From Candidatus Omnitrophota bacterium (lineage in GTDB: Bacteria > Omnitrophota > Gorgyraeia > Gygaellales > Profunditerraquicolaceae): a stretch of 64,000 nucleotides of DNA. Shown in pieces: positions 2 to 20,658 of this stretch. The notes beneath the pieces are model-generated. The model was not told where the DNA came from. It did not search any database and was given only the letters and a program-made list of their open reading frames with translations. Numbering within the stretch: position 1 is the stretch's first letter; each line of letters opens with the position of its first letter. Location: positions 3,378-67,377 of the forward strand of contig JBFZAT010000059.1 in the NCBI GenBank assembly GCA_041308845.1, written 5' to 3'. The position numbers and the translations under genes are program-made.

Positions 2-2155
2 GCCAACAATAAACATCTTTTCCATACCGATATTCCAGATAGCGTTAAACTCTGGACCGGCACCCGGCTAAATAATAACGGTACCCCGAATGACCCCGAT
101 GATGATTATGAAGAAACGCGTAGCATGGAGGATGTGATCGCTGATTGCGCTGCCTATAAGACTGGAGAATCGCCGATTCCAGCCCAATTTAACGGATTCT
201 TTACCCAGGTCTGGTCACCGACTAATTATTCTGCCGCTGCCACTTATCCTAAGTTACAATCTGGTAAGGTTTATACCGTAGCCAGTTATGTGGCTTTAGC
301 TACCGGAGCTACTTTTACTACTCCGGTTTCTTTCTCCGTAACTATCCCGCAGACCATGAGCGATATGAAGGCATCTTTGGATACCGTGCAAGCTACAGTT
401 GAAAGTACATTGAACATGCCGATTGCGACCATGGAGTCTAACTTACGCCGGATTCTGGCTGGAGATGATGCTGACCCGGATGAAATTGCCGCCCAAGGAG
501 GGATCAAAGGAATTGTAGAGCAGAAACTTGATGATCAGGAAGCGATTATCCGTGCGGCAACTGCGGATATGATGGCAGCTTTTGCTGCTGTTTTAGTGAG
601 CTTTGAGTCTAAGACCCAGGCGGCAGTAGACTTATTGGATGCCAGCTCTAAGACCGCCGAGATTGCCGGCCAAACCCTTAAAGCGACAGCTGAGAAATAT
701 TCTTGGCGTATTGCCCTTTCACCTGATCCAGCTTTACCCGGAGATGAAATAACTTTAACGGCCACCGGATTACCGAATAAAAACCCAGTATTAAGTATTT
801 ATAGTTGGGATAATAAAATCCTTTTTAATAATCAAAAATTAAAAGAGGTTGCTGCTACTCCGGGTGTTTATACTTATAAGTTTGATGTAAACAATAGATT
901 TGCTAGCGGCAAGGCTTATAGTTTTATTATGACTGAGCCGGATAGTGACGCTTTTGAAATCGGATCCGGGATGGTAGAGTCAATGAGCTTAACTACGATT
1001 GCTGGGTTGGCTTCTGCTGCTCCCGGAGCTGAGCGGGCAGCTAAGAAGGCCTTAGATGCGATTAAGGCTGTAGAAGCAGTATTAGTCAGCGGAGAGAATA
1101 TTAATATTGCCCTCACCCTGAAGAACCTGAGAGATTCCGTAGATGCCTTGCCCGGAGAGTTAGCCAAAGAAGGTCCTTCTTCACGTTTAAATAACACTGT
1201 GGATGAAATATCCGACCGATTAAAGGCTCTCGGTGGTAAAGAGGGATTGGACTTAAGCGCTTTGTTCGAAAAAGCCCTGTCTACCTCGCCGACGGTTAGA
1301 GATATGCGCGTCAAGACCGATGAGATCGGGTCAGTGATTGAGATCTTAAAACAAATCTTTGAGGCTAAGTTCGGCGGTAAAGATGCGCCGGTAGTTTCGG
1401 CCACCTTGGCTCCGGGAAGCGTAAAGTTCCGGATCATCGCGGTCAATCCTTCCTCGGATAAAACCCAATTTGTCCAGGTTAAGTATGATTTACCCGAGGA
1501 GGTTAAGCCTCAAGATATTGCAGATTTAGGGGGCCTAGACTTAGAGTATGACTCGGCCCGGTCAATCCATTATGTTTATAAAGCAGATCTTGAATTGGCT
1601 CCGAATGAAGTGCGGGTATTTGAAGTAGATGTAGAAGATATCTGGTTAATCGCCCAGGACAAAATCACGGATCTGAAATTCCGGGTAGACCAAATCCTGT
1701 CTCGCCTTGAACAAACTGCTTACTATCCTAAGGCCAAGGAAATATCAGATACCATCTATCCTAAGCTAAACGAAATTCTGGTTTCTCAGGCGGATGATAC
1801 AGTCAGCCGGGAACGGCATATTGGTGTTTACCGTCAGAATTTATTAGTGCTTGGTCAGGTTAAGGAAGATATCGCCAGGATGGAAAAGATTTTGGTAACT
1901 GCCGGCGGCCCGGCGTCTCCGGAGATGTTGGCTAAGACTAAGATTAAAGCTGATGAGCCGAATAAAACAATGACTTGGATTATTATTTTTGTTATAATCA
2001 TATTTACAGGGCTGCTGGCGGGTGTACTGTTCTTCAGCTGGAATCGTCAGTCGCGTATGGTTAAAGATGAACTCGCAGAAGCTAAAAACTCCGCCTTTCC
2101 TGAGTCCGGATTCGGGCCTGAAGAAAAAAATAAGCCCGCGGAAGGTCAATCTTAA
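2..2155 (+). CDS. Large protein of unknown function (>717 aa, 5'-partial), Ala-rich with coiled-coil-like stretches and a single C-terminal TM helix followed by a basic tail. Its stop overlaps the atpC start (TAATG)
   Basis: The reading frame stays open from position 2 to the listed ORF at 125, with no stop, so the gene runs off the window. The C-terminal hydrophobic helix IIIFVIIIFTGLLAGVLFF resembles the b-subunit anchor FIIFEIIVFTGLIFIL encoded at 2626. I recognise no catalytic motif. Confidence 0.5.
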   Translation, partial: ANNKHLFHTDIPDSVKLWTGTRLNNNGTPNDPDDDYEETRSMEDVIADCAAYKTGESPIPAQFNGFFTQVWSPTNYSAAATYPKLQSGKVYTVASYVALATGATFTTPVSFSVTIPQTMSDMKASLDTVQATVESTLNMPIATMESNLRRILAGDDADPDEIAAQGGIKGIVEQKLDDQEAIIRAATADMMAAFAAVLVSFESKTQAAVDLLDASSKTAEIAGQTLKATAEKYSWRIALSPDPALPGDEITLTATGLPNKNPVLSIYSWDNKILFNNQKLKEVAATPGVYTYKFDVNNRFASGKAYSFIMTEPDSDAFEIGSGMVESMSLTTIAGLASAAPGAERAAKKALDAIKAVEAVLVSGENINIALTLKNLRDSVDALPGELAKEGPSSRLNNTVDEISDRLKALGGKEGLDLSALFEKALSTSPTVRDMRVKTDEIGSVIEILKQIFEAKFGGKDAPVVSATLAPGSVKFRIIAVNPSSDKTQFVQVKYDLPEEVKPQDIADLGGLDLEYDSARSIHYVYKADLELAPNEVRVFEVDVEDIWLIAQDKITDLKFRVDQILSRLEQTAYYPKAKEISDTIYPKLNEILVSQADDTVSRERHIGVYRQNLLVLGQVKEDIARMEKILVTAGGPASPEMLAKTKIKADEPNKTMTWIIIFVIIIFTGLLAGVLFFSWNRQSRMVKDELAEAKNSAFPESGFGPEEKNKPAEGQS

Positions 2156-2388
2156 TGCTGTTAAACGTTTCAATTTTAAACACTAGCCGGGTAGTTTTTG
2201 AGGGGCAAGCCGGCAGTGTAATTGTAACCGGAGAGGAGGGGGTTTTTGAAATTCTCCCTTTTCATAAGCGTATTATGAGCCGTTTGATTACCGGTTCGGT
2301 TATTGTGGATCAGCAGAGTTTTCCGATCCGCCGGGGGATTATTAAAGCTGATCAAAATACAGTAACTATTATTATGGAAGAAAAATGA
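2155..2388 (+). CDS. atpC: F-type ATPase epsilon subunit, N-terminal beta-sandwich domain only (77 aa)
   Basis: VVFEGQAGSVIVTGEEGVFEILPFHKRIMSRLITGSVIV aligns to the epsilon N-domain ([29 protein letters not shown]...). There is no C-terminal helical hairpin. The stop overlaps the atpE start (ATGA). Confidence 0.7.
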   Translation: MLLNVSILNTSRVVFEGQAGSVIVTGEEGVFEILPFHKRIMSRLITGSVIVDQQSFPIRRGIIKADQNTVTIIMEEK

Positions 2389-2603
2389 GTAAAAATATTG
2401 CTTTAGTCATTATTTTTGCTTTATCTATATTAGGGCCCTGCGCAGTTTTTGCCGCAGGCAGCTTTGCTAGTATTAATGCTTTGGGCCGGAACCCTTCGAG
2501 TGCCCCGAAAATTTTTACGGCTATGATTATCGGGTTAGTTTTTGCGCAGTCTTTGGCTATTGTAGCGATGTTAATTGTATTCCAATTATTCGGAGCCTCT
2601 TAA
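2385..2603 (+). CDS. atpE: F-type ATPase c subunit (proteolipid), atypical because it has no acidic residue
   Basis: It is a 72-aa two-helix hairpin with a GRNP polar loop (canonical ARQP). Helix 2, IIGLVFAQSLAIVAM, aligns to G-ALVEALPIIG, with Gln at the ion-binding Glu/Asp position. Confidence 0.7.
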   Translation: MSKNIALVIIFALSILGPCAVFAAGSFASINALGRNPSSAPKIFTAMIIGLVFAQSLAIVAMLIVFQLFGAS

Positions 2604-2625
2604 TACTGGATAAGGAGACAATAAG

Positions 2626-3336
2626 ATGTTGATGGTTTCATTTATAATTTTTGAAATTATCGTTTTTACCGGTTTGATTTTTATCTTACGTAAAATCATG
2701 ACCCAGAATGTAATTTCGGCGACCCAGCACATCGACGAATTAAACCAGGATTATACTAAGAAAGATGAAGATATCCACCGCCGTTGGGAGGAAGTTAAGC
2801 GGCAAGCTGAGCAAATTATCCGCCAGGCTCAAGAAGAAGCTGAAAAGACCAAATCGGAGTTGATGGCTGCCGGTCAAGCCGAAAAAGATCAGATTTTAAA
2901 ACAGGCCCGCGCTAAAAGCGAAGAGATGGTTGCTCAAGCGGACAAATCTTGTCAAGCGATGCTTGCGGAAATAGAGGCGCGGGTTAGCCGGGAGGCGATG
3001 AATAAAGCAGCAGATTTAATTCATGATGTTTTGCCCGATAAATTTAAGCAGAGCGTGCATAATGAATGGGTAGAAGGGTTGATTGCCCATGGGTTTAGCC
3101 ATTTGAATAATATCAGTATTCCGGATAATGTCTTCGAAGTTTTGATTGTTTCCGCATTTCCACTTACTGCTGCCCAGCGCCAGGAGTTGACGCAAAAGCT
3201 TTCCCGGGTTTTAGAGAGAACAATTACCTTAAAAGAAGAAGTAGAACCTAAGCTTGTTGCCGGACTAATTATTAAGATTGCCAGCCTGGTTTTTGATGGA
3301 ACTTTAAAAAATAAAATTATGGAGAAGGCCCGCTAA
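2626..3336 (+). CDS. atpF: ATP synthase b subunit fused to the delta (OSCP) C-terminal domain
   Basis: It has an N-terminal TM helix and a charged coiled coil typical of b. The C-terminus, LTAAQRQELTQKLSRVLERTITLKEEVEPKLVAGLIIKIASLVFDGTLKNKIMEKAR, matches the delta C-terminus (...[34 protein letters not shown]). Confidence 0.65.
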   Translation: MLMVSFIIFEIIVFTGLIFILRKIMTQNVISATQHIDELNQDYTKKDEDIHRRWEEVKRQAEQIIRQAQEEAEKTKSELMAAGQAEKDQILKQARAKSEEMVAQADKSCQAMLAEIEARVSREAMNKAADLIHDVLPDKFKQSVHNEWVEGLIAHGFSHLNNISIPDNVFEVLIVSAFPLTAAQRQELTQKLSRVLERTITLKEEVEPKLVAGLIIKIASLVFDGTLKNKIMEKAR

Positions 3337-4820
3337 TGTCCAGCGAGATAAAATTCCCGGATCCCGGAACAGTTTTTGAGATTCGCGAGGTAGGTTTTGT
3401 GCAGAGCGTGCGTAAATTCATTGTCGTGGCTAAAGGCATGCCCAGCTGTATTAATGGCCAGATTGTTGAGTTTGCTAACGGTATTCCGGGTTTAGTGATG
3501 GGGTTTACCGAGGAAAAAGTCCAGATTTTAGTTTTAGGGGACCCGGTGGGCATTCGTGCCGGAGATGAAGTTTATAACAAGGGGAAATCTCTTAGTCTTC
3601 CGGTAGGGGAGGCTTTCGTCGGCAGGCTTGTAGATGCGCTTTGCCGTCCCCTGGATGGTTTAGGCCCAATCCAAGCCACTACCCAATTACCAGCATTTAT
3701 TGTTGCTCCCGGAGTTATGGATCGGCAGCCGGTAAATCAAACTCTGGAATCTGGTACTCTGATTATCGATGCGATTATTCCTCTGGCCAAAGGCCAGAGG
3801 CAGCTTTTAATCGGCGACCGAATTACCGGTAAAACCTCGGTAGCCTTGGATGCGATTATTAACCAGAAAGGTAAAGATGTAGTTTGTATTTATTGTTGCA
3901 TCGGTAAGCCATACTCAAGTTTAGTAAAAGTGATCAATGTTTTACGCGAAAAAGAAGCTTTGGATTACGTGATTATTGTCTCTGGCGTAGCCAGTGTTTC
4001 TACCGGAGAACAGTATTTAGCCCCCTATACTGCCTGTACTTTAGGGGAATATTTTATGAGCCAGGGTAAGGATGTATTATTGGTGGCGGATGATTTAACC
4101 AAACATGCCTGGGTGTATCGGCAAATATCTCTTTTACTAGAGCGGGCACCCGGGCGAGAAGCCTACCCGGGAGACATTTTTTATTTACACTCTCAAATGA
4201 TGGAGCGGGCCGGACTGCTTAAAAAAGAGTTAGGCGGAGGCTCAATGACCTTTTTACCGATCGTCGAAATTCTGCAGGGAGACCTTACCGGTTATATTCC
4301 GACCAACTTGATTTCGATGACCGACGGGCAGCTGTATTTCTCTACGGGGCTTTTTAATAAAGGGGTTAAGCCGGCGATTGATTTTGGTTTATCGGTCTCC
4401 CGTATTGGTAATAAAGCGCAGTGGCCGGCGATGAAGGCCTCCAGTAAATCTTTGCGGCTGGACTACCTACAGTATAAGGAACTACTGCAGATGACCCAAC
4501 TGCGCACCGCCGGACTTTCTAAAGAGGCCGAAGAGCGCCTGCGCCGGGGGGAGGCGATCAGCCAATTGATTACTCAGGATAAAAACCGTCCGGTTTCTAT
4601 CGAAGAGCAGATTATTTATTTATATTCCTTAAACCAGGGTTGGTTAGATAATTTATCGACGCAGCAGATTCGGCAATTCCGGTTGGGCATTCTGAATTAT
4701 TTCCAACAGAAAAAGCCTGCATTCTGCCAACAGATCCGCCAGAGCAAAATGCTTAGCGAAGATTTACGTTTGATGTTAGAGGAAACATTAACCGCATACT
4801 TACAGCAAGAGGTAAAGTAG
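3336..4820 (+). CDS. atpA: F-type ATPase alpha subunit
   Basis: It carries the alpha P-loop GDRITGKTS with QRQLLIGD, and the overall alpha architecture. Confidence 0.85.
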   Translation: MSSEIKFPDPGTVFEIREVGFVQSVRKFIVVAKGMPSCINGQIVEFANGIPGLVMGFTEEKVQILVLGDPVGIRAGDEVYNKGKSLSLPVGEAFVGRLVDALCRPLDGLGPIQATTQLPAFIVAPGVMDRQPVNQTLESGTLIIDAIIPLAKGQRQLLIGDRITGKTSVALDAIINQKGKDVVCIYCCIGKPYSSLVKVINVLREKEALDYVIIVSGVASVSTGEQYLAPYTACTLGEYFMSQGKDVLLVADDLTKHAWVYRQISLLLERAPGREAYPGDIFYLHSQMMERAGLLKKELGGGSMTFLPIVEILQGDLTGYIPTNLISMTDGQLYFSTGLFNKGVKPAIDFGLSVSRIGNKAQWPAMKASSKSLRLDYLQYKELLQMTQLRTAGLSKEAEERLRRGEAISQLITQDKNRPVSIEEQIIYLYSLNQGWLDNLSTQQIRQFRLGILNYFQQKKPAFCQQIRQSKMLSEDLRLMLEETLTAYLQQEVK

Positions 4821-4824
4821 ATTT

Positions 4825-5688
4825 ATGCAGACGATGGCGGTAATTAAAAAAGATATGGATTTTAACCGCGGCCTTTCTTCATTGATCGAAGTATTAAAAA
4901 ATATCGCTGTGTCACAATATCGTTCGCTAGAGCATAAATTCACTGTTTTTGATAAACTGATGAACGCCATTGAAAGCTGTTTTGAATTTATTGACCTTTC
5001 AGCTTTCCGGCACCAGTTTTTAACGCCGGCTAATCCGGCGCAATTAATTGTGGTGATTACCAGCGATAGCGGACTTTTGGGCGGTTTAAATATGCAGGTA
5101 GTTACCCGGGCCCTGGCCGGATTAGGGAATACTTCTGGTGGTCAATTGGTAGTCATTGGCGAAAGAGGAAAGATGTATGCCCGGGAAAGCCAGGTACCCT
5201 TTGTGGCCTATCCCGGAATTAGCGACGATAACCGCCTTACCCAGGCTTTGCAACTAAGAGATTATTTATTCTCCGGAATCCTGCAGAAGAAGTTCGGTGC
5301 TTTAAAAGTGGTTTATCCTCATCCGGTGTCTTTTACAGTGCAACGGGTGGAGACGGTGAATTTTCTCCCTTTTTCTATGGATTTCTTATCGAACCAACCT
5401 CAGGCCGCCGGTCAGGCCCGAATTATCAAAGAGGTTATTTTCGAATCTAAGATGGCAGATATTTTTGAATATTTGATTTATCTCTGGATGGGGCAGAAGC
5501 TTTATGACATTTTCGGCTTGAGCCGTTTATCAGAATTTGCCGCCCGCTATGTTCATCTCGAGGATAGTTTGCGCCGGCTTAAAGAGATGGATAGTAAACT
5601 AAAATTACAGTATTTTCGCATCCGGCATGAAATCATTGATCAAAGCATGCGTGAACTTTTTAGCGCCCGGTTATTGTATAATTCTTAA
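4825..5688 (+). CDS. atpG: F-type ATPase gamma subunit (divergent)
   Basis: LIVVITSDSGLLGGLNMQV matches gamma YLVVSTDRGLCGGLNINL, and the C-terminal helix aligns to the gamma C-terminus. Confidence 0.65.
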   Translation: MQTMAVIKKDMDFNRGLSSLIEVLKNIAVSQYRSLEHKFTVFDKLMNAIESCFEFIDLSAFRHQFLTPANPAQLIVVITSDSGLLGGLNMQVVTRALAGLGNTSGGQLVVIGERGKMYARESQVPFVAYPGISDDNRLTQALQLRDYLFSGILQKKFGALKVVYPHPVSFTVQRVETVNFLPFSMDFLSNQPQAAGQARIIKEVIFESKMADIFEYLIYLWMGQKLYDIFGLSRLSEFAARYVHLEDSLRRLKEMDSKLKLQYFRIRHEIIDQSMRELFSARLLYNS

Positions 5689-5719
5689 CAGTTAGAGGAG
5701 TTTATCAGGGGAATATTTT

Positions 5720-7120
5720 ATGGTTAAGGAAAAAATAAAAGGAAAAATTACTGCCGTGCAGGGGCCGGTGGTGGATGTAAAATTTGCCAGCTCTGATGAG
5801 GTACCGAATATTTATGCGATGCTCTTGACGCATACCATTGATGGTAGTGAGGTTTTTTTAGAGGTTGCTGAGCACCTGCCGGGGAACCTAGCTCGTTGTA
5901 TCTCAATTAACTCTACTACTAATATCCAACGCTATGCGCAGGCAGTTTTCTACGGCCCGTCTATCCAGATACCGGTGGGAGATGGCCTTTATGGACGTTT
6001 AATTAATGTGGTTGGTCAGGCGATTGACCAGGGCGGGGCGATCCCTTACCAGGAAAAAAATTCGATCAGGAAAACCGATATGGGCAGCCGGATGACAATT
6101 AGTAAGAATAAAGATGAGCGGCGTAGTTTTGAGGTAATGGAAACCGGTATTAAGATTATCGATTTACTGGCTCCTTTAGTTAAAGGCAGTAAAACCGGTA
6201 TTTTAGGGGGCGCCGGATTAGGCAAGAGCGTGTTAACCTTGGAAATTATCCAGCATATCGTTAAACGCTATCAGGGTAGTTGCGTTTTTGTCGGTATCGG
6301 GGAGCGTATTCGTGAAGGAAATGAGCTATATTATGAATTAAAGAATCATGATGTGTTATCTAAAACAATGATGGTTTTTGGCCAGATGAATGAGCCTCCC
6401 GGAGCGCGTTTTGCCGTGGCGATGACCGGCATTACCATGGCCGAGGCGGTGCAGAAGAAGAATCAGGATGTGTTGATGTTTTGCGATAATATCTTTCGTT
6501 TTGTGCAAGCCGGAAGTGAAATTTCTACACTCTTAGGCCGGGTGCCTTCAGAAACCGGTTATCAGCCTACCTTACTTTCGGAGGTGAGTGAGTTTCATGA
6601 GCGTATTCGCACAACTAAAGATTCGGGAGGTTCCATTACTTCTATTGAGGCGGTCTATGTGCCGGCTGATGATTTAACTGATCCAGCGGTTGTGGCGATT
6701 TTTAGTTTTCTAGATTCAGTTCTGGTTTTATCCCGCGAGCGTATCCAATTAGGTTTATATCCGGCGATTGATCCGCTTTTATCCAGTTCTTCTAATTTGG
6801 ATATCGATATCGTCGGTAAACGTCATTTCGATGTTGCCCAGGATGTCATCAGAATGTTTCAACGCTATGAAGAGTTACGCCGGATTGTTTTAGTTGTGGG
6901 TATCGATGAACTTTCTTCAAGCGACCGGATTATTTATGAGCGGGCCAGAAAAATGCAGAATTTCCTCACTCAACCGTTTTTTGTCGGAGAAGCTTATACC
7001 GGTAAAAAGGGGGTTTATGTAACCATTGAACAAACTTTGGATGGATGTGAAAGAATTATTTCTGGTAGAATGGATAATCAGCCGGAGGAAGGTTTTTATT
7101 TAATCGGAGCTTTATCATAA
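5720..7120 (+). CDS. atpD: F-type ATPase beta subunit
   Basis: It has the P-loop GGAGLGKSV, the catalytic GERIREG, MNEPPGAR, FRFVQAGSEISTLLGRVPSETGYQPTL and YVPADDLTDPA motifs. The DELSEED loop reads DELSSSD. Confidence 0.85.
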   Translation: MVKEKIKGKITAVQGPVVDVKFASSDEVPNIYAMLLTHTIDGSEVFLEVAEHLPGNLARCISINSTTNIQRYAQAVFYGPSIQIPVGDGLYGRLINVVGQAIDQGGAIPYQEKNSIRKTDMGSRMTISKNKDERRSFEVMETGIKIIDLLAPLVKGSKTGILGGAGLGKSVLTLEIIQHIVKRYQGSCVFVGIGERIREGNELYYELKNHDVLSKTMMVFGQMNEPPGARFAVAMTGITMAEAVQKKNQDVLMFCDNIFRFVQAGSEISTLLGRVPSETGYQPTLLSEVSEFHERIRTTKDSGGSITSIEAVYVPADDLTDPAVVAIFSFLDSVLVLSRERIQLGLYPAIDPLLSSSSNLDIDIVGKRHFDVAQDVIRMFQRYEELRRIVLVVGIDELSSSDRIIYERARKMQNFLTQPFFVGEAYTGKKGVYVTIEQTLDGCERIISGRMDNQPEEGFYLIGALS

Positions 7121-7147: not shown

Positions 7148-9298
7148 ATGTCTAAAAAAATCGATTTGCAGTTAGCCGAAGTATTGGTGGAAAAGAAATT
7201 GATTAACCGGGAGGATATCGGAAAATTTTTACAGGAAGCCGCAACGCTCAGCCATGATTTAAAACAGGTTTTAATCAAGCACAATTTGTTTTCTGAAAAA
7301 GAACTGCTGGATATCTTGGCCGAGAAGCTAAAATTAAGCTGCGTTAACCTTAAGGAGCTGCTGATTGATAAATCGATTATTACTAAAGTTCCTTTGAAGA
7401 TCGCTTCTTATTATAAATTTATTCCTTTGGCGCTGCGCGGCCGGACACTGACGATTGCCGTGGCTTATCCTTTAGACATTCAGACCTTGGATGAAATTAG
7501 GACTCAGCTGGGTCTGGACCTGGAGATGTCTTTGGCCTGCTCGGCGGATGTTTTAGATGATTTAAAGAAATATTACGGTTTGGCCGCCGATACCCTGGAA
7601 AAAATAAGCTCCCAGAGTCCTGCGGGGAACTTTAGCGAACAGACTAAAGTGCAAGAAGGAGTGGAAGATATTGAAAAACAGGCCACGGATGCTTCAGTGA
7701 TTAAATTAGTTAACCAGATAATTCTAGAGGGTTGGCGGAAACGGGCTACCGATATCCATATTGAGCCTTATCGCCAAGGCTTATCTTTACGCTACCGGAT
7801 TGACGGTTTACTTTACGATGCTAATGTGCCAGGGGAAATAAAAAATTTTCTTAATGCCATTGTTTCCCGGATTAAAATCATGTCGAACCTGAATATCGTT
7901 GAACGCCGCCTGCCCCAGGACGGCCGGGCGATTGTTAGGGTCCAAGATCAGGTCTTAGACCTGCGTATTTCCACTATTCCTACTCCTTTTGGAGAAAGCT
8001 TGGTGATCAGAATTCTGCCTACCCAGATGCTCTTTAGCCTGGAGAAACTGGGTTTAGCCAAGAGTGAATTGCAGATCTTTGAAAAATTAGTTCAGAAGCC
8101 GCACGGTATAATATTCGTTACCGGCCCCACTGGCAGCGGTAAGACGACCACCCTTTATTCTTGCCTGACCAGGATTAACACCAAAGACCGTAAAATTATT
8201 ACCATCGAAGACCCGATCGAATATGAGATGAGCGGGATTACGCAGATCCAGGTAATGCCGGAGATCGGGCTGGATTTTGCCCGCGGCCTGCGCAGCATTT
8301 TAAGGCATGATCCGGATGTAATTATGGTGGGAGAAGTAAGGGATTTTGAAACTGCTGAAACAGCCATCCGGGTGGCTTTAACCGGGCATTTAGTATTTTC
8401 TTCTTTACATACTAACGATGCCGCCAGCGGAATCGCCCGCCTGCAGGATATCGGAGTAGAACCTTACTTGATTGCTTCTAGCGTGGAGGCTTTTATTGCT
8501 CAACGTTTGATCCGGGTGATTTGTCCGGAATGCCGTTTTGAAGATAAAAATGCGCCTTTAGAATTAAGGGAGTTGATTGCTAAAGATTTGGGAATTAAAT
8601 TAGAAGAGGTAAAAATATTCCGGGGTAAAGGTTGTGCCCATTGTAACGCTACCGGGTTTTTTGGCCGTACGGCTATCTACGAAATCCTAATCGTCGATGA
8701 TCTAACTAAGGAGATGATTTTAAAGAAAGCTTCTTCGGATCAAATTAAAAGGCTGGCTTTATCCAAAGGCATGCGGACTTTGCGCCAGGACGGTTGGAAA
8801 AAAACGATCAGCGGGATTACTACTTTTGAAGAAGTAATCCGGGTAACTTCGGCTCAACAGGAGGATCTTTTGGTCAAAGAGACTCCGGCTCAAGAGCGCG
8901 GATATACTAAATCGGAGCTGCCGCCGCAGCCGGAAGGATCAAATAAACGTATTTATCAACGTTTAGATAATAAAGTTAAAGTGCGCTATAAAGTTTTTGA
9001 AACCGAAAAAGAATTGATTAAGCGTAAAGAAATCACTGAGGAAATCAGCGCGACAAAAAATATTTCTGCCGGAGGTTTACTTTTTATTGCTCAGGAGCAG
9101 TTAACTATAGGTGCAATATTAGAGCTTAAGATTCAATTACCTAGCAGCCAGGAGTTGGTTGAATGCTTAGCCAGGGTGACTAGGGTGGAGGAAATGCTTG
9201 AGCCGGGAGAATATGATATTGCAGTTTGTTTCCTGGATTTAACCAGCGCTGATAGGATTAGATTAGATAAATTCGTGAAGCTAGAAAGCGGAGGTTAA
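7148..9298 (+). CDS. gspE: Type II secretion / type IV pilus assembly ATPase (GspE/PilB family) with an N-terminal T2SSE_N/MshEN-like domain and a C-terminal PilZ domain
   Basis: Walker A is GPTGSGKTTT. The tetracysteine motif is CPEC...CAHC. The C-terminal ~140 aa carry RIYQR (RxxxR) and NISAGGLLF ((D/N)xSxGG), which are PilZ c-di-GMP-binding signatures. Confidence 0.8.
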   Translation: MSKKIDLQLAEVLVEKKLINREDIGKFLQEAATLSHDLKQVLIKHNLFSEKELLDILAEKLKLSCVNLKELLIDKSIITKVPLKIASYYKFIPLALRGRTLTIAVAYPLDIQTLDEIRTQLGLDLEMSLACSADVLDDLKKYYGLAADTLEKISSQSPAGNFSEQTKVQEGVEDIEKQATDASVIKLVNQIILEGWRKRATDIHIEPYRQGLSLRYRIDGLLYDANVPGEIKNFLNAIVSRIKIMSNLNIVERRLPQDGRAIVRVQDQVLDLRISTIPTPFGESLVIRILPTQMLFSLEKLGLAKSELQIFEKLVQKPHGIIFVTGPTGSGKTTTLYSCLTRINTKDRKIITIEDPIEYEMSGITQIQVMPEIGLDFARGLRSILRHDPDVIMVGEVRDFETAETAIRVALTGHLVFSSLHTNDAASGIARLQDIGVEPYLIASSVEAFIAQRLIRVICPECRFEDKNAPLELRELIAKDLGIKLEEVKIFRGKGCAHCNATGFFGRTAIYEILIVDDLTKEMILKKASSDQIKRLALSKGMRTLRQDGWKKTISGITTFEEVIRVTSAQQEDLLVKETPAQERGYTKSELPPQPEGSNKRIYQRLDNKVKVRYKVFETEKELIKRKEITEEISATKNISAGGLLFIAQEQLTIGAILELKIQLPSSQELVECLARVTRVEEMLEPGEYDIAVCFLDLTSADRIRLDKFVKLESGG

Positions 9299-9303
9299 AG
9301 TTA

Positions 9304-10521
9304 ATGGTAAAGTATAATTATCGGGCCAAGAAAGGGCTCCAGGAGATAGTCAGCGGTACGATAGAAGCTGCTTCGGAAAAAGAGGCCATTGAAAAAATCA
9401 GTGCTTTAGGGTATCTGCCCGTGCACCTGGAAGAGAATAAGGGTCCTGCTCAGGCCTCGATTTTAACCACGCCTAAATCTTACGGCAGGATAGGTTCCGG
9501 TCAGATTACTATTTTTAGCCGGCAGTTGGCCAGCCTTTTAAAATCCGGGGTTCCGATATTATCCGCGATAAATATTATTAAAGAACAATCGGAAAACATG
9601 AATTTAAAAGCGGTGCTGGTTGATATCTATAATGAGATTAAGAATGGAGGTACTTTTTCGTCTTCCCTGGAGGCTCACCCCAAATATTTTTCTGTTTTGT
9701 ACGTAGCGATGGTGCGCACCGGGGAGAATAGCGGAGCTTTAGCTGGTTCGCTTTTAAGGATTGCGGATTACCGGGCTAAACAAGAAGAATTGCTTTCGCG
9801 TTTGCGCATGGCGATGGCTTATCCGCTACTTATGGCTTTAGTCGGAGTGGCTACGGTGGTATTTATGCTTACTTTTGTGATGCCTAGGTTAATGGGGATA
9901 TTTTCTAGTCTGGGCCAGAATCTCCCGCTGCCGACTAAGATTTTATTGGCTATCAGCCAAGGTCTGCGCCAGTGGTGGCCGGGAATAATCTTAAGTCTGG
10001 GGGTAGTGGTTTTTTTGATCAAACAGCAGTTAAAAACTAAAATTGGTAAAATTTCCTGGAGCATTCTAAAATTGCATATACCGATTTTTGGGAAATTCGT
10101 GTTAAAAGCGGATCTGGCTTGTTTTAGCCGGACTTTAGAGCTGTTAATTAAAAGCGGCCTGCCGATACTTAGGGCGCTGCAGATATCCGTTCAGGTATTA
10201 AGCAATGAAGTGATCAAGGAAAAGTTAATTAAAAGCCATCGTGATCTGGAACAGGGGGGATCTTTTGGCCAGAGCATGAAAGATTCTAAATTGCTGCCTT
10301 TGTTTATGGTGAACTTAATCAGCGTCGGCGAAGAATCCGGTAACCTGGCTGCGGCCTTAGGAGAAGTAGCGGATTGCTATGAACGTGATACCGATGAAAC
10401 CGTCAGGATAATGAGCAGCTTACTTGAACCACTAATGATCTTGGTTATGGGTTTAATCGTGGGTTTTATTGTGGTAGCCATGTTATTGCCGATATTTGAA
10501 ATTAACATGATGGCTAAATAA
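9304..10521 (+). CDS. gspF: T2SS/T4P inner-membrane platform protein (GspF/PilC family)
   Basis: It has the duplicated T2SSF-like architecture, 405 aa, three TM segments, and sits immediately downstream of the ATPase. Confidence 0.75.
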   Translation: MVKYNYRAKKGLQEIVSGTIEAASEKEAIEKISALGYLPVHLEENKGPAQASILTTPKSYGRIGSGQITIFSRQLASLLKSGVPILSAINIIKEQSENMNLKAVLVDIYNEIKNGGTFSSSLEAHPKYFSVLYVAMVRTGENSGALAGSLLRIADYRAKQEELLSRLRMAMAYPLLMALVGVATVVFMLTFVMPRLMGIFSSLGQNLPLPTKILLAISQGLRQWWPGIILSLGVVVFLIKQQLKTKIGKISWSILKLHIPIFGKFVLKADLACFSRTLELLIKSGLPILRALQISVQVLSNEVIKEKLIKSHRDLEQGGSFGQSMKDSKLLPLFMVNLISVGEESGNLAAALGEVADCYERDTDETVRIMSSLLEPLMILVMGLIVGFIVVAMLLPIFEINMMAK

Positions 10522-10526
10522 ATCCT

Positions 10527-11387
10527 ATGACGAATATAAGAATGAAGCTATTTTTAGTTATTTTATTGGGTCTATGTTCTTTGGCCGCCGGTTACCCCGG
10601 GAACTGGTCAGAGAAAAAAAGCGAGCATTTTATCGTCTATTTCACCCAGGATGAAAAGTTCGCCCAGGATGTATTGCATAGAGCAGAGCAGGATTACCGC
10701 CGTATCGCTCACGATTTAGGGTATGCGCGGTATTCGGAATTTTGGACCTGGGATAAAAGAGTGAAAATTTACATCTATCCAGAGCGGAATGCTTTCTTAA
10801 AAGCGACCAACCAACCTTCTTGGTCAGAAGGGATGGCTGATTATACCAATAAGCATATCGTCAGCTATGCCTGGGGCAAAGGGTTTGTAGAGTCGCTTCT
10901 ACCGCATGAGATTGCGCATTTAGTTTTCCGCGATTTTGTAGGCTTTAAGGGAGAGATTCCTCTTTGGCTGGATGAAGGTGTAGCGCAGTGGGCCGAAGAA
11001 GCTAAACGTAAGGAGATTAAGAGCCTGATACAGCGATATTTTCAGCAGGATAATTTACTTTTAGTGAGCGATATCATGAAACTGAATATTGAGAATCTTA
11101 AAGGTAAACAGGGGTTATTGATCCGGGCCACCCGGACCAAAGACGATAAAGACGGAGTACTTTTCTTAAGCGCTAACAATTTAATCGAAATTTATTATCT
11201 TCAATCTGTTTCGCTGGTGGGTTATTTAATTGAGAAATTCGGCTCTACCGCTTTTTCCGGGTTTTGCCGTGAACTACGCGATGGGCGCAGCGTAGAGGAA
11301 GCTTTGAGGGTTGCCTATCCTTTACGCATCCGTGATATTAAAGAGTTCGAGGATGGCTGGAGGGAATATTTAAAGACAGGTAATTGA
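10527..11387 (+). CDS. Secreted putative zinc metallopeptidase, MA clan (Peptidase_MA_2-like)
   Basis: It has a signal peptide, HEIAH (HExxH) and a downstream WLDEGVAQW (third-ligand Glu in the WxxEGxAxY/W context). It is embedded between gspF and gspG. Confidence 0.45.
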   Translation: MTNIRMKLFLVILLGLCSLAAGYPGNWSEKKSEHFIVYFTQDEKFAQDVLHRAEQDYRRIAHDLGYARYSEFWTWDKRVKIYIYPERNAFLKATNQPSWSEGMADYTNKHIVSYAWGKGFVESLLPHEIAHLVFRDFVGFKGEIPLWLDEGVAQWAEEAKRKEIKSLIQRYFQQDNLLLVSDIMKLNIENLKGKQGLLIRATRTKDDKDGVLFLSANNLIEIYYLQSVSLVGYLIEKFGSTAFSGFCRELRDGRSVEEALRVAYPLRIRDIKEFEDGWREYLKTGN

Positions 11388-11402
11388 GTAATTGAAGAAA
11401 GG

Positions 11403-11834
11403 ATGATCATGAATAAAGCGCAAAAAGGTAGAGTTCAATCAAATGGTTTTACGCTGATCGAATTAATGTTGGTAGTGGTAATTATCGGGGCATTGGTAGC
11501 GATGGTCATGCCTAGGCTTACCGGTAGAGGAGAACAGGCCCGGGTGGCAGCAGCTAGCGCGGATATTAATGCTAATATTGCTACTGCTTTAAAACTTTAC
11601 GAATTGGATAATGGCAATTTTCCCAGTTCCTCTGAAGGGTTAAAGGCTTTATTAGTTAAACCTTCATCAGTGAAGAATTGGAATGGGCCTTATTTAGAAA
11701 GAAAACCGGTTGATCCTTGGGGCCGGGAATATGAATATAAATCTCCGGGTGAGCATCGCAAAGCCGATTATGATTTATACTCTTTAGGTAAGGATGGGGT
11801 AGAGAGTGTTGATGATGTTACAAACTGGGAATAA
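11403..11834 (+). CDS. gspG: T2SS major pseudopilin GspG
   Basis: It has the prepilin leader SNG|FTLIELMLVVVIIG and the GspG C-terminal signature NWNGPY...DPWGREYEYKSPG...DYDLYSLGKDG. Confidence 0.85.
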   Translation: MIMNKAQKGRVQSNGFTLIELMLVVVIIGALVAMVMPRLTGRGEQARVAAASADINANIATALKLYELDNGNFPSSSEGLKALLVKPSSVKNWNGPYLERKPVDPWGREYEYKSPGEHRKADYDLYSLGKDGVESVDDVTNWE

Positions 11835-12228
11835 GGCAAGCATAAAGAGTCCTGTTAGAGGCTTTAGTCTGCTGGAGGTGATGATTGCCGCAGCGGTGCT
11901 GGCTTTGGGGGCGACATTAATTTATCAGTCTTTTTTTACCGCGGTTGATTCTTTTAATTATTATTCCGCTCTTTTAAAAATAACCCCTTGGATGGATGAG
12001 CAGATTTGGCAAGCCCAGAATGAGCTTAGCCGTCCGGGTTCAGGAGCTAATCTGCCCTCCGGCGGTCGGCTGGAAATTAATAATAAGGTTGTGGATTGGA
12101 GTTTAACTTACCATGCTCTAGATCAATCTATGAACCTTTACCAGATTGACTTGGCTCTTTTCTGGCCGCAAGGGGCCAGGCAAGTCAAATTATCGAGATC
12201 CGCTTATGCGATTCATACGCAAGAATAA
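11806..12228 (+). CDS. Minor pseudopilin (GspH/GspI-like)
   Basis: It has the prepilin-type N-terminus RG|FSLLEVMIAAAVLALG and is of small size. Confidence 0.55.
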   Translation: MLMMLQTGNKASIKSPVRGFSLLEVMIAAAVLALGATLIYQSFFTAVDSFNYYSALLKITPWMDEQIWQAQNELSRPGSGANLPSGGRLEINNKVVDWSLTYHALDQSMNLYQIDLALFWPQGARQVKLSRSAYAIHTQE

Positions 12229-12790
12229 TTCAGGTTTTAGTCTGGTTGAGCTTCTGGTAGTCATGGTTATGCTCAGCGTAATTTCTTTAGCTATCTATTC
12301 AACCTTTAATAATGGTTTTAAAATATGGCAAAAGGTTAATCAGCCTTTAGAGCAGCAAGATTTGGGTATTTTCTTTGATAAGTTGGCTCAAGATTTAAGC
12401 AACTGCTTGCATTCTGCCAATATCCCTTTTTCCGGTAGCCTGAATACCCTGACTATACCGACCTTAGTTTTTAGCCCGCGCTTAAAGATAAAAAGTTTAG
12501 GTTCGGTAGATTATTTTTACGATCCGCAAGCCGGATTTGTGTATCGTCAAACTAAGGATTTCAGCCAGCTTTATAACCGGCAACAAGAGAGTCCGGTGCT
12601 CCTATTAAAGGAGATTAGATTTTTTAGATTTGAATATTATTACTTTGACGCAGAGAAACAAACTTATTTGTGGCAAGAAGAATGGTTAAGCACGGGTTTA
12701 CCTCTGGCGGTTAGGGTAGTGCTAGGTTTTAATGATTCCGATGAGAATAACCAATTTATCCGGACAATCAGTGTTCCGATCGGCGCTTAA
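12206..12790 (+). CDS. Minor pseudopilin (GspJ-like)
   Basis: It has the prepilin-type N-terminus NSG|FSLVELLVVMVMLS, reached from the internal ATG at 12206. The listed ORF start at 12146 is probably too far upstream. Confidence 0.55.
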   Translation: MRFIRKNNSGFSLVELLVVMVMLSVISLAIYSTFNNGFKIWQKVNQPLEQQDLGIFFDKLAQDLSNCLHSANIPFSGSLNTLTIPTLVFSPRLKIKSLGSVDYFYDPQAGFVYRQTKDFSQLYNRQQESPVLLLKEIRFFRFEYYYFDAEKQTYLWQEEWLSTGLPLAVRVVLGFNDSDENNQFIRTISVPIGA

Positions 12791-13784
12791 GTCCAAAGGA
12801 AGTATTTTAATTCTGGCTTTATGGTCGCTTTGTTTATTATCGGCGTTTGCCGTTATTTTAAATTATCAAATTCGCCAAGCGCTGGTTTTAGCCAGCCGGA
12901 TTGATCAGAAAGATAAAATGCGCTGGATTGCCGCTGCCGGGGTAGCTAAGGTTATGGCGGAATTAAAGCATAGCCCAGCGCAGACCTACGATTATTTAGC
13001 TGACCCCTGGAGTAATAATCCTGCCGCTTTCCGGGATATTCCGGTAGGAGACGGCGAATTTACCCTAGAATATTTTTATCCAGATACCTACTCTGCTGTT
13101 GCCCAAGCAGGTTACGGTTGTGTGGATGAAGAACGTAAGCTTAATATTAATCAGGTTGAGCCGGAAGTTTTAACCCGTTTTTTCCGGGTAGTTTTATCGG
13201 TTGATGAATCGCTGGCTCAAGAATTAGCCGCTTGCATTGTGGATTGGAGGGATGCAGATAGCCAGCTTTCTATTCCTACCGGGAGTGCGGAATATTTTTA
13301 TTATAGCAGCCTGCCTTTTTCTTATCCGGCTAAAAATGCCGATTTTGAGGTTCTAGAGGAGTTGTTGCTGGTTAAAGGTTTTAGCGAGAATGTTTTTGAA
13401 AAAATAAAAGACTATGTTACTATTTATGGATCCGGCCGGGTGAATATTAATACCACTACGCAGGTTATCTTATTTGCCCTGGGGTTAGATGAAGATTTGG
13501 CGGCCAAGATTATTTTATACCGCATGGGTCCGGACGGATTGGGCCAGACACCGGATGATAACGTTTTTGTTTCTCAATCGGAGATTGTGCCCAAGTTAAG
13601 TCAATTTTATGCTTTCAGTTCTGCACAGATTGATCAGTTGAATCGGATAGTTTCTCAGTATATCGCGGTTGGCTCCAATAACTTTTTGATTAAGTCTACG
13701 GCTAAATTGTCCGGAAAGAATACTTTAACTGTATTTAGTGTAGTTAATCGAGATGGCAAAGTTCTTTACTGGCGGGAAAATTGA
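12732..13784 (+). CDS. gspK: T2SS minor pseudopilin GspK-like
   Basis: It has a hydrophobic N-terminal segment, 350 aa, a GRVNINTTT (xNxNTA-like) motif and a helix-hairpin-helix-like region typical of GspK. Confidence 0.55.
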   Translation: MIPMRITNLSGQSVFRSALKSKGSILILALWSLCLLSAFAVILNYQIRQALVLASRIDQKDKMRWIAAAGVAKVMAELKHSPAQTYDYLADPWSNNPAAFRDIPVGDGEFTLEYFYPDTYSAVAQAGYGCVDEERKLNINQVEPEVLTRFFRVVLSVDESLAQELAACIVDWRDADSQLSIPTGSAEYFYYSSLPFSYPAKNADFEVLEELLLVKGFSENVFEKIKDYVTIYGSGRVNINTTTQVILFALGLDEDLAAKIILYRMGPDGLGQTPDDNVFVSQSEIVPKLSQFYAFSSAQIDQLNRIVSQYIAVGSNNFLIKSTAKLSGKNTLTVFSVVNRDGKVLYWREN

Positions 13785-13787
13785 TAA

Positions 13788-15269
13788 ATGTTTAAAATTA
13801 AAATGAAAAAGTTTAAATTTTTTTCCAGGCTTGCCCACCAGGAAATGGTCGGGGTTAATCTCAGCGGGAATAATTTAAAAATCTCTCATCTAAAGATTTC
13901 TCCGAACAAGAAAGAGGTAGTTAATCTTTTGAATTTAGATATTACCGCGCTTAACGATATTGAGATCGCTAAAAAAATCCAGGTAGCTATCGGGGCTCTC
14001 CGGGGTAAAGCGGTGGAGATTATTGATTTGCTTCCTACGCATTTGGTAATTACCAAAAATATCGAAGTTCCTTCTATCGAAAAAAAAGAGATTAAGGAGA
14101 TTCTCAACCTGCAGGCCGGCCGGCATACTCCTTATTCCCGAGAAGAAATAATCGTAGATTATGTTGAAATCGGTACCTATAAAAATAGCTATACTAAGGT
14201 ACTTTTAGTGATTGTGGCTCGCAGCGTTGTTAAGCGGCATTATGAAATATTGGAACGGGCAGGTTTTAGGCTTAAGCAGGCTCTTCTGGCTTCGGAAGGA
14301 ATGGCTTTGGCTGTTTTTAAAACTTTAAGGCTGGAGAATGAAAGCGCGCCGGTCAACATTCTGCATGTTGATGAAAACTTTACGGATTTTAGCGTCGTTT
14401 TTAAAAACCGGGTTATTTTTATCCGTTCTATCCCGATCGGGGCCTCTCAGCTCAAACAAGAAAAAGAAGTTTACCAGCTGAAGTTTATCGACGAGCTTAA
14501 AAGATCGTTGGAGGCTTATTTAGGCGGAGATATTGAAATCAGCCCGAATATGCTTATTTTAACCGGAGCCGAGGACGGCCTGAAAGAAATTGAAACTTTG
14601 CTTAACAGCACAATGCATTTACCGATTAAAACCTTGTCGTATTCCGGTATGTTTAATATTTCAGAGCTAGCCCGCGGAGCAATGTTTAAATCCCGGCAAA
14701 TATCTTTTTTTGATGTAATTGCTCCGCTTTTAAACTGTCCGGAGCTCAAGATTGATCTGGTGCCGGAGGAAGCCCGGGTGCGCCGCTCACTTGAGGAAAG
14801 AGGCAAAGATTTGATTAAAACCGGTATTTTTATCTTAAGTATTTTTATTATTGTTTTCTTTATTCTAGCCAGTAAAATCTATTTCCATGGTGTTCAGCTA
14901 AACAGGTTAGAACGTAAATATTCTACGGTTAACCGGGAAGCCAAAGAGCTAGAGAAAGACCTGGTTAAAATAGGGTTGGTGAAGAATTATCTGACTAATC
15001 GGGGCTATTCTTTAGAAATTTTGACTCAGTTACACGGTTTAGTTTCTGCTGATATTGAGTTGAGCGAAATTCGCTATGACCTAGATAAATTCTCCATTAA
15101 AGGTTCGGCGGATGCCATGAGTTCGGTTTTTTCATTTGTCGACCGGCTGGAAAAGTCCGAATATTTCAAGGAGGTTAAAACCCGCTATACCACTAAGCGC
15201 AAAGACGGTTTGAGGGATTTAACGGATTTCGAAATTATTACTTTGACCGAAAGGCCTAAGGATCGATGA
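13788..15269 (+). CDS. GspL-like protein: a PilM-type actin-like cytoplasmic domain, a TM helix, and a PilN-like periplasmic domain
   Basis: The N-terminal ~350 aa resemble PilM. A single TM helix follows (IFILSIFIIVFFILA), then a ~120-aa periplasmic segment. Confidence 0.6.
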   Translation: MFKIKMKKFKFFSRLAHQEMVGVNLSGNNLKISHLKISPNKKEVVNLLNLDITALNDIEIAKKIQVAIGALRGKAVEIIDLLPTHLVITKNIEVPSIEKKEIKEILNLQAGRHTPYSREEIIVDYVEIGTYKNSYTKVLLVIVARSVVKRHYEILERAGFRLKQALLASEGMALAVFKTLRLENESAPVNILHVDENFTDFSVVFKNRVIFIRSIPIGASQLKQEKEVYQLKFIDELKRSLEAYLGGDIEISPNMLILTGAEDGLKEIETLLNSTMHLPIKTLSYSGMFNISELARGAMFKSRQISFFDVIAPLLNCPELKIDLVPEEARVRRSLEERGKDLIKTGIFILSIFIIVFFILASKIYFHGVQLNRLERKYSTVNREAKELEKDLVKIGLVKNYLTNRGYSLEILTQLHGLVSADIELSEIRYDLDKFSIKGSADAMSSVFSFVDRLEKSEYFKEVKTRYTTKRKDGLRDLTDFEIITLTERPKDR

Positions 15270-15832
15270 AGCTGCCTAATTTACAGTTTTTACAGGTATT
15301 TGTAGGGAAGTTATCTAAAAAAGACCGTTTGATTTTTTACCTTACGGTTTTTATGGTTTCATTATTGATTTTAGACCGGGCAATTGTTTCTCCCGTTTTT
15401 TCTAAAATCAAATCCTTAAATAATCAGGTCCGCGATAAGCAGGCCGAGATTAAAAAAAATTTACGGCTGCTAGCGCAGAAAGACAGAATTATTACCGGAA
15501 GTGTTAAATACAGCTCTTTTTTAGGTGATGCCCGGCTGAGCGATGACCAGCAGGTCACTTTAGTACTGAAAGAATTGGAAAGTCTAGCTAGCAAGAGTTC
15601 GGTATATTTAGTAGATATGAAACCGGCGGGGGTCAAAACATCGGGTTCTTCAAAAATAATCATGATCAATCTGAATTGTGAAGCCCAAATGGAGCAGTTG
15701 GTGAATTTTATGTATAATCTAGAGAATTCCAATAGTTTGATTTCGATAGAGAAATATCAACTGGTTCCTAAAACCAGAGAATCCAGCGTAGCTAAATGCA
15801 GCATATCTGTGTATAAGATCGTAGCGCTATAA
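15266..15832 (+). CDS. GspM/PilO-like bitopic membrane protein
   Basis: It has an N-proximal TM helix, is 188 aa, and its position after the GspL-like gene matches canonical T2SS order. Confidence 0.45.
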   Translation: MKLPNLQFLQVFVGKLSKKDRLIFYLTVFMVSLLILDRAIVSPVFSKIKSLNNQVRDKQAEIKKNLRLLAQKDRIITGSVKYSSFLGDARLSDDQQVTLVLKELESLASKSSVYLVDMKPAGVKTSGSSKIIMINLNCEAQMEQLVNFMYNLENSNSLISIEKYQLVPKTRESSVAKCSISVYKIVAL

Positions 15833-15880
15833 TTTCTAGGTGGATTAGCGATAGAGGGTGAAAAAGAAAGGGGTGAGTAG

Positions 15881-16354
15881 ATGAAAAGGATATTTTTATT
15901 GGCGTTGAGTTTAGTCCTCTTGTGGAGTTTTACCGCGCAGGCCTTAGAAACTACATTGATCGACGTGCGTAACGAAATACTAAAGAATGCCCAGGGGATA
16001 AAACCTTACTTTGAGAAATCTCGGGACCCGCTTTTATTAAATAGTTTGTGGGGTTCTTCGATTATGGCGGTTTCACAATTAGACGCTTATTTTTCGATGT
16101 TGGGGATCATAAACGGCATTAAAAATGAAGATTTACAAACAGCCCAGATTGGTTATTTGGTCAGTTGGCTGAACCAAATTAAAGATACAACGGAATTAAA
16201 TATTAAAAGTTTAGAGGCGATTAAATCGACTAGTGATGCCCGTAGCCGGGCGATGGCTTTAAAGTTAAGGGACATTTTTAATAATTTAAAAACCCGGGTA
16301 GTTAAAGAGCTGGGGACGGTTACGCAGCTGCAGCAGTCGCAGGCTAAGAACTAA
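15881..16354 (+). CDS. Small secreted/periplasmic helical protein of unknown function, last gene of the T2SS-like cluster
   Basis: It has a signal peptide (LALSLVLLWSFTAQA), no recognisable motifs, and is followed by a terminator. Confidence 0.4.
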   Translation: MKRIFLLALSLVLLWSFTAQALETTLIDVRNEILKNAQGIKPYFEKSRDPLLLNSLWGSSIMAVSQLDAYFSMLGIINGIKNEDLQTAQIGYLVSWLNQIKDTTELNIKSLEAIKSTSDARSRAMALKLRDIFNNLKTRVVKELGTVTQLQQSQAKN

Positions 16355-20515: not shown

Positions 20516-20658
20516 ATGAGCATTTTACCTTTAAATATGGTAAATGCCAAGTGTCTTATGGTTCTTTCCAGTTGTAATTTTTTATGGAAATTAGCTAGCG
20601 TAAAGTTACCGGATTAATAATTATTGAAAAAAGGTCAGCTCGGTAATAGAATAAAGCC

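Follow-up and report, generated by a model that had tools for sequence, protein, structure and literature searches.

The end of a giant exported Omnitrophota protein is a conserved anchor module encoded next to an F-type ATPase lacking subunit a

Gliding of Mycoplasma mobile involves a type 3 F1-like ATPase (MMOB1660/1670) and the giant surface proteins Gli349, Gli521 and Gli123, and the peripheral stalk of the mycobacterial ATP synthase consists of a b-delta fusion together with b', a full-length b-type subunit whose long helix extends into the cytoplasm, in an enzyme that has subunit a. Here we analyze ORF1, the open reading frame (ORF) at the 5' end of a 64,000-nucleotide stretch of DNA (the window) from a Candidatus Omnitrophota bacterium (NCBI GenBank assembly GCA_041308845.1, contig JBFZAT010000059.1, positions 3,378 to 67,377 of the forward strand), which encodes the end of a giant exported protein and directly precedes the genes of an atypical F-type ATPase. 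An earlier note made from the sequence alone had drawn attention to this gene pair and suggested that ORF1 and the b-delta protein pack together in the membrane, for example as a stator. Across Omnitrophota, a "symbiotic" non-respiratory F-type ATPase within 10 kb of genes resembling type-4a pilus (T4aP) and type II secretion system (T2SS) genes has been described by Seymour et al. 2023 (PMC10066038), who proposed a role in attachment to and motility on host cells and also drew the analogy with Mycoplasma gliding. Giant proteins of Omnitrophota (archaeovorins and dockerin-type giants), encoded near T2SS and type IV pilus (T4P) genes, have been reported by West-Roberts et al. 2023 (bioRxiv 10.1101/2023.11.21.568195), where ATP synthase is not mentioned as a neighbor of the giants, and in a 2026 preprint (10.64898/2026.06.07.730766).

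The locus studied here is that of Seymour et al., with F-type atp genes at 2155-7120, gspE from 7148 and relatives in Omnitrophota. In their main text, giant ORFs (>20 kb) are handled as a separate trait, whereas in the present locus the anchor of a giant directly precedes the epsilon gene; a complete relative of ORF1 spans 6,910 amino acids (aa), or 20.7 kb, and the 5' end of the window gene lies outside the window. The ATPase/pilus locus and the giant ORFs of Omnitrophota are thus already published, while in the main texts of Seymour et al. and of the giant-protein papers, supplementary files apart, we found no anchor module before epsilon, missing subunit a or variable c-subunit carboxylate, and no account of an anchor-ATPase pairing. 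The ORF1 giant shares with the published Omnitrophota giants its great length, signal peptide, membrane anchor, repeats, paucity of known domains and T2SS/T4P neighbors. It is smaller, at about 4-7 thousand residues compared with 10-147 thousand, and unlike archaeovorins, which have many transmembrane (TM) helices and SecA-DEAD-like domains, the parts of it that were seen contain a single C-terminal TM helix and no SecA-like or enzymatic domains. By hidden Markov model scores, used as a proxy for the type 2/3 grouping of Seymour et al., the window alpha and beta subunits pass the ordinary atpA and atpD cut-offs (alpha, 573 > 554) and fall below those of NF045863 and NF045858 for MMOB1660/1670 (409 < 600 and 425 < 850 bits). 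By analogy, Mycoplasma mobile likewise pairs an F1-derived motor that does not make ATP with very large membrane-anchored host-surface proteins; the window cluster differs in keeping epsilon, c, b-delta and gamma, in having a T2SS-like system, and in belonging to a phylum that we take to be diderm. No sequence relation of ORF1 to the Gli proteins was seen, in comparisons that included no search aimed at Gli.

ORF1 is open in frame 2 of the forward strand from base 2 of the window to its TAA stop, and the gene extends 5' beyond the window, as homologs align from residue 1. A homology search with ORF1 returned 43 relatives, most of them cut by contig ends; the labeled ones belong to Omnitrophota or to unclassified bacteria, the nearest being Omnitrophota metagenome-assembled genomes. 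In total, 68 ORF1-related loci were collected (65 genome loci found with the ORF1 alignment and three by protein look-up) with upstream flanks of up to 10 kb. The frame of the ORF1 homolog is open through the whole flank in 53 of the 68, and lower bounds on homolog length reach 4,316 aa and exceed 3,000 aa in 27 loci. A profile search of 1.8 billion representatives placed the ORF1 module C-terminally in proteins as long as 6,941 aa, with the N-terminal region of the profile recurring 10-38 times per protein. The upstream repeats weakly match the Kre9/KNH immunoglobulin (Ig)-like domain, and the ~3,000 aa upstream of the module in each of two relatives gave only Kre9_KNH and Reelin-subrepeat matches. 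The complete relative mentioned above (locus L149) carries a signal peptide at its N-terminus. ORF1 thus encodes the final 717 residues of a giant Omnitrophota surface protein that is exported by Sec, is several thousand residues long and has tens of upstream Kre9/KNH-like Ig repeats. The open frames and the complete relative show that it is not a tail-anchored protein of ~720 aa: ORF1 does have a single TM helix near its C-terminus, ending 37 residues before the stop, but the signal peptides on the complete relative and on the split anchors described below are at odds with a cytoplasmic bulk without a signal sequence. Searches of ORF1 against Pfam, NCBIfam and PHROGs returned no family match (best in Pfam, a sub-threshold Pex19), bearing out the earlier statement that the protein carries no recognized motif. 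ZorA, the sole match of a PDB sequence-profile search (E = 0.003), was dismissed as a likely coiled-coil compositional match.

In all ORF1-found loci with downstream DNA, the genes follow one order on one strand, ORF1-epsilon-c-b-delta-alpha-gamma-beta-(MshEN)-GspE-GspF; only two ORF1-found loci are without ATPase genes, and both are cut by contig ends. The linkage was also examined in reverse, using 80 metagenome loci, from more than 500 in existence, retrieved by the c subunit alone; 50 of the 80 were informative in having at least 700 nt upstream of c. The ORF1 module lies directly 5' of epsilon in 48 of these. Of the two exceptions, L138 has a toxin-antitoxin pair (4496-5081) in the giant's place 5' of epsilon, with miaB and rsmE upstream, and L135 has no epsilon. 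The linkage is conserved and very strong, and it looks obligate. The co-occurrence with the atypical atp cluster that the earlier note had suggested looking for is therefore present in both directions, and its alternative of a shuffled gene without conserved linkage does not apply. A conserved gene string begins with the anchor module and continues with epsilon, c, b-delta, alpha, gamma, beta, GspE/PilB-PilZ, GspF and pseudopilins. Local variation was also seen: a Y1-transposase-like ORF lies between epsilon and c in one locus (L020:10374-10996), and a 522-aa minus-strand gene stands just upstream of a broken ORF1 homolog in another (L002:5488-7056). A 265-aa gene of the latter locus is not, as first considered, an additional gene inserted between ORF1 and epsilon but the C-terminal piece of the broken homolog.

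At the junction itself (TAATG, 2153-2157), the last A of the ORF1 stop codon (TAA, 2153-2155) is the A of the epsilon ATG, and a GGAAGG Shine-Dalgarno-like site (2140-2145) lies 9 nt 5' of that ATG. The b-delta/alpha junction in the window is likewise TAATG and the epsilon/c overlap is ATGA; the ORF1-atp junction is therefore of the same type as the atp-atp junctions. The distance from the ORF1 stop to the epsilon start varies among 67 loci: the genes overlap or abut in 10, whereas 21 loci have a gap of up to 30 nt, 10 one of 31-100 nt, 21 one of 101-300 nt and 5 one of more than 300 nt. ORF1 belongs to the operon in general, and TAATG coupling is confined to some lineages. The ORF, its overlap with epsilon (atpC), the C-terminal TM helix followed by NRQSRMVK and the gene's running off the window had all been read correctly in the earlier note, and the overlap from which it had deduced translational coupling is real in the window but, with overlap or abutment in so few loci, not a feature of the family.

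The gene is divided at a single fixed position in at least 10 loci, as well as in the complete locus L149 (L061, L063-L066, L068, L082, L114, L124, L127, L145 and L149, for example L149:28702-29553). In these split forms the giant ends in FEAKFGGxDxPVVxxxx and a stop, which corresponds to strand 1 of Ig-like sandwich B (Table 1), and a separate protein of 262-283 aa starts with a typical signal peptide and continues with RFRIVAVNPS (strand 2), the helices, the TM helix and the tail, placing the gene break between strands 1 and 2 of the sandwich. The giant's last strand may thus complete the sandwich of the small protein by strand complementation. The split forms show that the last ~245 residues of ORF1 constitute an independent unit, which is kept beside epsilon. 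The signal peptide on the split anchor further shows that the anchor is exported, that its TM helix runs from outside to inside and that the 37-residue tail is cytoplasmic. The topology of ORF1 is accordingly N-out/C-in, parallel to subunit b, which has this same orientation in F-type ATPases. The inverted topology relative to b-delta that the earlier note had envisaged is contradicted by the signal peptides on both the full-length and split forms, as the two helices would be parallel.

An AlphaFold 2 (AF2) model of the 717 residues has a mean predicted local distance difference test score (pLDDT) of 72 and a predicted template modeling score of 0.38, so that the domains are good and their packing against one another is uncertain; a separate model of the C-terminal 265 residues is consistent with it. 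Alanine makes up 11% of ORF1 overall and 19% of residues 119-233. The earlier description of the protein as Ala-rich and coiled-coil-like fits those helices, but the models also contain two Ig-like beta-sandwiches. Foldseek searches of the PDB with both models found only generic Ig-like and carbohydrate-binding-module (CBM)-like sandwiches (E >= 0.003), those for sandwich B being CBM- or Ig-like with E >= 0.01. The conserved stretch of residues 321-360 partly coincides with a low-confidence linker that separates sandwich A from the helical bundle (pLDDT below 50 for residues 329-339), and it may serve in processing or interaction. Median identity to orthologs climbs toward the C-terminus, from 33% in residues 1-233 to 54% in residues 234-457, 57% in the anchor (residues 458-700) and 73% in the TM helix. 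For comparison, the ATPase subunits have median identities of 54% (epsilon), 50% (gamma), 42% (b-delta), 74% (c), 70% (alpha) and 71% (beta). The anchor module is therefore conserved about as well as epsilon and gamma and better than b-delta, and the TM helix as well as alpha, beta and c (73% vs 70-74%), which fits a specific intramembrane partner.

The ATPase encoded downstream is atypical in several subunits. Epsilon is 74-91 aa long in all loci and comprises the beta-sandwich domain only. Alignment of the c subunit with canonical c subunits is in register, the carboxylate position lying at +18 from the loop proline as for E. coli D61. In the window this position is glutamine; among 63 distinct sequences it is E in 28, Q in 25 and another residue in 10, and of 122 distinct sequences of the clade 56 have Q, 52 have E and 14 have another residue, so that the carboxylate is absent from 70 of 122 (57%). 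As judged from this distribution, the carboxylate is dispensable and not under selection in the clade. The cluster contains one b-like gene only, the b-delta fusion, of which just the C-terminal third of OSCP is matched and which scores below the cut-offs of the NCBIfam B/delta and alternate-B models. Alpha and beta keep the catalytic motifs, with Walker A, the Arg finger and the catalytic Glu visible in their translations. There is no room for subunit a in the ~60 clusters with measured gene gaps (median gaps from epsilon to beta, 13-53 nt), and none was found in the 64-kb window, whose multi-TM ORFs are MlaE, an M48 peptidase, FtsX and similar proteins. Because the cluster lacks a, epsilon is truncated, b-delta is single and c has Gln in place of the carboxylate, the complex is not an ion-coupled synthase in this organism. 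On sequence grounds, it is an ATP-hydrolyzing F-type complex for which ion coupling would be impossible here and in most relatives.

The resemblance between the TM helices of ORF1 and b-delta, which the earlier note had called striking and expected to exceed that of random tail-anchored proteins, proved to be of mixed strength. In the window, 9 of 19 positions are identical, the best score among 48 other TM-like segments in the 64 kb (next best, 7), and the two helices have the element (I/V)IFxGL(L/I) in common. Across 60 orthologous pairs, ORF1 and b-delta TM helices share a mean of 6.1 identities in 19 (BLOSUM score 25.9), whereas the other TM segments in these loci give 4.9 +/- 1.0 (16.9 +/- 5.4), and b-delta is the top-scoring segment in 41 of the 60 loci, with few comparators per locus. 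The window pair thus lies at the high end of a weak family-level signal, which is suggestive only. The two helices may pack together, and the 73% conservation of the ORF1 TM helix is a stronger argument for a specific membrane partner than its resemblance to b-delta. The b-delta TM helix (window 2626-2700, aa 1-25) has a mid-membrane polar residue, Glu10 here and Gln10 in about half of the orthologs, the others being hydrophobic; no correlation of residue 10 with the E/Q state of the c subunit was seen.

We consider it fairly probable that the giant surface protein is tied through its anchor to the adjoining a-less ATPase by docking in the membrane sector. In this proposal, the anchor TM helix and its juxtamembrane tail would dock beside the b-delta TM helix, the c ring or both, filling part of the place vacated by subunit a and the second b, and an internal ATP-hydrolyzing rotary motor would thereby be tied to a very long external adhesin, with the adjoining pseudopilus system forming part of the same host- or prey-attachment apparatus. 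We infer the docking from the fixed adjacency, the behavior of the split forms, the conservation of the TM helix and the positions left vacant by a and the second b. The mycobacterial stalk offers an analogy in that a single b-delta fusion likewise needs a second membrane-anchored partner helix; unlike b', ORF1 could offer only a TM helix and ~20 conserved cytoplasmic residues. In function the proposed motor-adhesin machine would resemble Mycoplasma mobile gliding, with different parts. A bolder form, in which the anchor is a true subunit of an a-less, non-ion-translocating ATPase and ATP hydrolysis turns gamma, epsilon and the c ring against a stator of b-delta and anchor so as to move or tension a fiber of ~5,000-7,000 residues, strikes us as unlikely. 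Several observations weigh against docking. The clusters L135 and L138 indicate that the ATPase does not need an anchor gene beside it. Glu is kept by about 43% of c subunits (52 of 122), and the genomes concerned could encode subunit a at another place. When composition and relatedness are controlled for, in a profile-profile comparison using whole-column shuffles, the TM resemblance becomes marginal (z = 1.9-2.2, p = 0.03-0.04); compared with b-delta, ORF1 has the shared motif ~5 residues farther into the membrane from the cytoplasmic boundary; and no covariation was apparent by eye between the anchor TM helix, the b-delta TM helix and the c-subunit E/Q state. Finally, the charges flanking the ORF1 TM helix (+2.3 before, +1.4 after) leave the topology undecided by themselves, the positive-inside rule being uninformative because both flanks are net positive.

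The main rival to docking is that a giant adhesin or surface fiber is merely co-transcribed with the ATPase and pseudopilus for attachment, its TM helix being a plain anchor without subunit contact. Co-expression would account just as well for the synteny and the shared operon, and gaps of more than 100 nt between ORF1 and epsilon in 26 of 67 loci, the two clusters without a giant and the weakness of the TM resemblance all agree with it. However, a plain anchor would be unlikely to remain 73% identical across species while the rest of the module is 33-57% identical, exactly the anchor part remains as the cistron beside epsilon when the gene is split, and the motif of the juxtamembrane tail is conserved; co-regulation alone is therefore a serious contender that we nonetheless judge rather unlikely. 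An export or assembly machine, in which the a-less ATPase with its FliH-like b-delta and the T2SS-like system would translocate, extrude or tension the giant as cargo in the manner of FliH-FliI-FliJ, would account for the presence of a cargo-like giant, an ATPase and secretion genes in one string. FliH, FliI and FliJ are homologous to b-delta, alpha/beta and gamma, respectively. T2SS/T4P genes also adjoin the published Omnitrophota giants (West-Roberts et al. 2023; 2026 preprint), but the giant and the split anchor bear ordinary Sec-type signal peptides, the c ring and epsilon are without counterpart in export ATPases, and the cluster in the window has no secretin gene, which together render this explanation improbable. 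Least credible is the model of the earlier note, in which a tail-anchored cytoplasmic protein would pair its TM helix antiparallel with that of b-delta in a heterodimeric stator. The TM identity in the window and the single b-like gene speak for it, but the signal peptides place a large part of the protein outside and the helices in parallel, and ORF1 matches no b-subunit model (PF00430 ATP-synt_B; NCBIfam b models including TIGR01144). In contrast to a b-type stalk, in which over 100 residues of cytoplasmic helix extend from the N-terminal TM helix up to F1, the AF2 helix through the ORF1 TM segment (aa 655-698) ends ~20 residues past the membrane; with only 37 residues after the TM helix, ORF1 cannot replace subunit b as a stalk, and the inverted heterodimeric stator fails.

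Table 1. Features of ORF1, the ATPase genes and the adjoining secretion-type genes (window coordinates)
Feature	Position	Strand	Basis
ORF1, last 717 codons and stop of the giant gene (5' part outside the window)	2..2155	+	Open frame, 43 homologs
Variable region: beta-rich segment (aa 1-117) and Ala-rich long helices (aa 119-233, one of 67 residues)	2..700	+	AF2; 33% median identity
Ig-like beta-sandwich A (aa 234-327)	701..982	+	AF2 strands 236-325, pLDDT 83-92; PDB matches generic Ig-like only
Most conserved stretch of the module (aa 321-360, GSGMVESMSLTTIAGLASAAPGAERAAKKALDAIKAVEAV), partly low-confidence linker	962..1081	+	Column conservation 0.84-0.89 vs 0.56 overall
Helical bundle (aa 342-457)	1025..1372	+	AF2 helices 342-363, 369-390, 394-413, 432-457
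Ig-like beta-sandwich B (aa 458-546; AF2 sandwich 464-544), start of the anchor module	1373..1639	+	AF2 models, split junctions
Extracytoplasmic helices of the anchor module (aa 547-658)	1640..1975	+	AF2 helices 552-569, 575-597, 603-633, 640-651
Single TM helix WIIIFVIIIFTGLLAGVLFFSW (aa 659-680)	1976..2041	+	Hydropathy; conservation 0.76; 73% median identity to orthologs
Cytoplasmic tail (aa 681-717)	2042..2152	+	First ~20 aa conserved (xRQxRxxxEELLxAKxxAFP), remainder variable
GGAAGG ribosome-binding-like site and TAATG stop/start overlap with epsilon	2140..2157	+	Read from sequence
Epsilon, N-terminal beta-sandwich only (77 aa)	2155..2388	+	PF02823, E = 1e-11
c subunit (72 aa) with Gln55 (CAG 2547-2549) at the ion-binding carboxylate position	2385..2603	+	PF00137
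b-delta fusion (236 aa): N-terminal TM helix, long helix, C-terminal part of OSCP	2626..3336	+	PF00213 at residues 167-232, weak PF00430
Alpha	3336-4820	+	Pfam, NCBIfam
Gamma	4825-5688	+	Pfam, NCBIfam
Beta	5720-7120	+	Pfam, NCBIfam
T2SS/T4P-like genes: GspE/PilB with PilZ, GspF, Peptidase_MA_2, GspG, minor pseudopilins, GspK, PilM-PilN fusion, GspM-like	7148..15832	+	Pfam

The order of the T2SS/T4P-like genes downstream of the ATPase recurs in related loci. By Pfam, the pilus genes (11403-16354) are more T2SS-like (GspG, J, K and M) than T4aP-like, and no secretin gene was found by Pfam in the cluster in the window. The GspE/PilB-type ATPase (7148-9298) has a C-terminal PilZ domain, which suggests control by c-di-GMP, and most relatives have a separate MshEN-domain gene between beta and gspE that is absent from the window. 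The Peptidase_MA_2 protein (10527-11387) has an N-terminal hydrophobic segment and is kept between gspF and the pseudopilin genes in many loci. A 157-aa ORF at 15881-16354 has no family match, and just 3' of the secretion cluster lie carotenoid-type genes (17411-21260) for an amine-oxidase/desaturase-like protein and two small lycopene-cyclase-domain proteins.

Omnitrophota are widespread, ultra-small and host-dependent bacteria, with no pure culture. Two published hallmarks of the phylum, the giant surface proteins and the non-respiratory F-type ATPase beside pilus genes, here form one gene string joined at a conserved anchor module, and the giant and the ATPase probably work as one surface machine. 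The locus shows an F-type c ring evolving without the ion-binding carboxylate, and it yields the testable hypothesis of a rotary ATPase without a proton channel wired to a giant adhesin, for which the ~265-aa anchor protein and the six ATPase subunits provide a small, expressible structural target. Were the anchor indeed a subunit of the ATPase, this would be a new kind of mechanical machine spanning the envelope, with which cells glide on their hosts or grapple them, and its origin would be independent of the Mycoplasma mobile motor.

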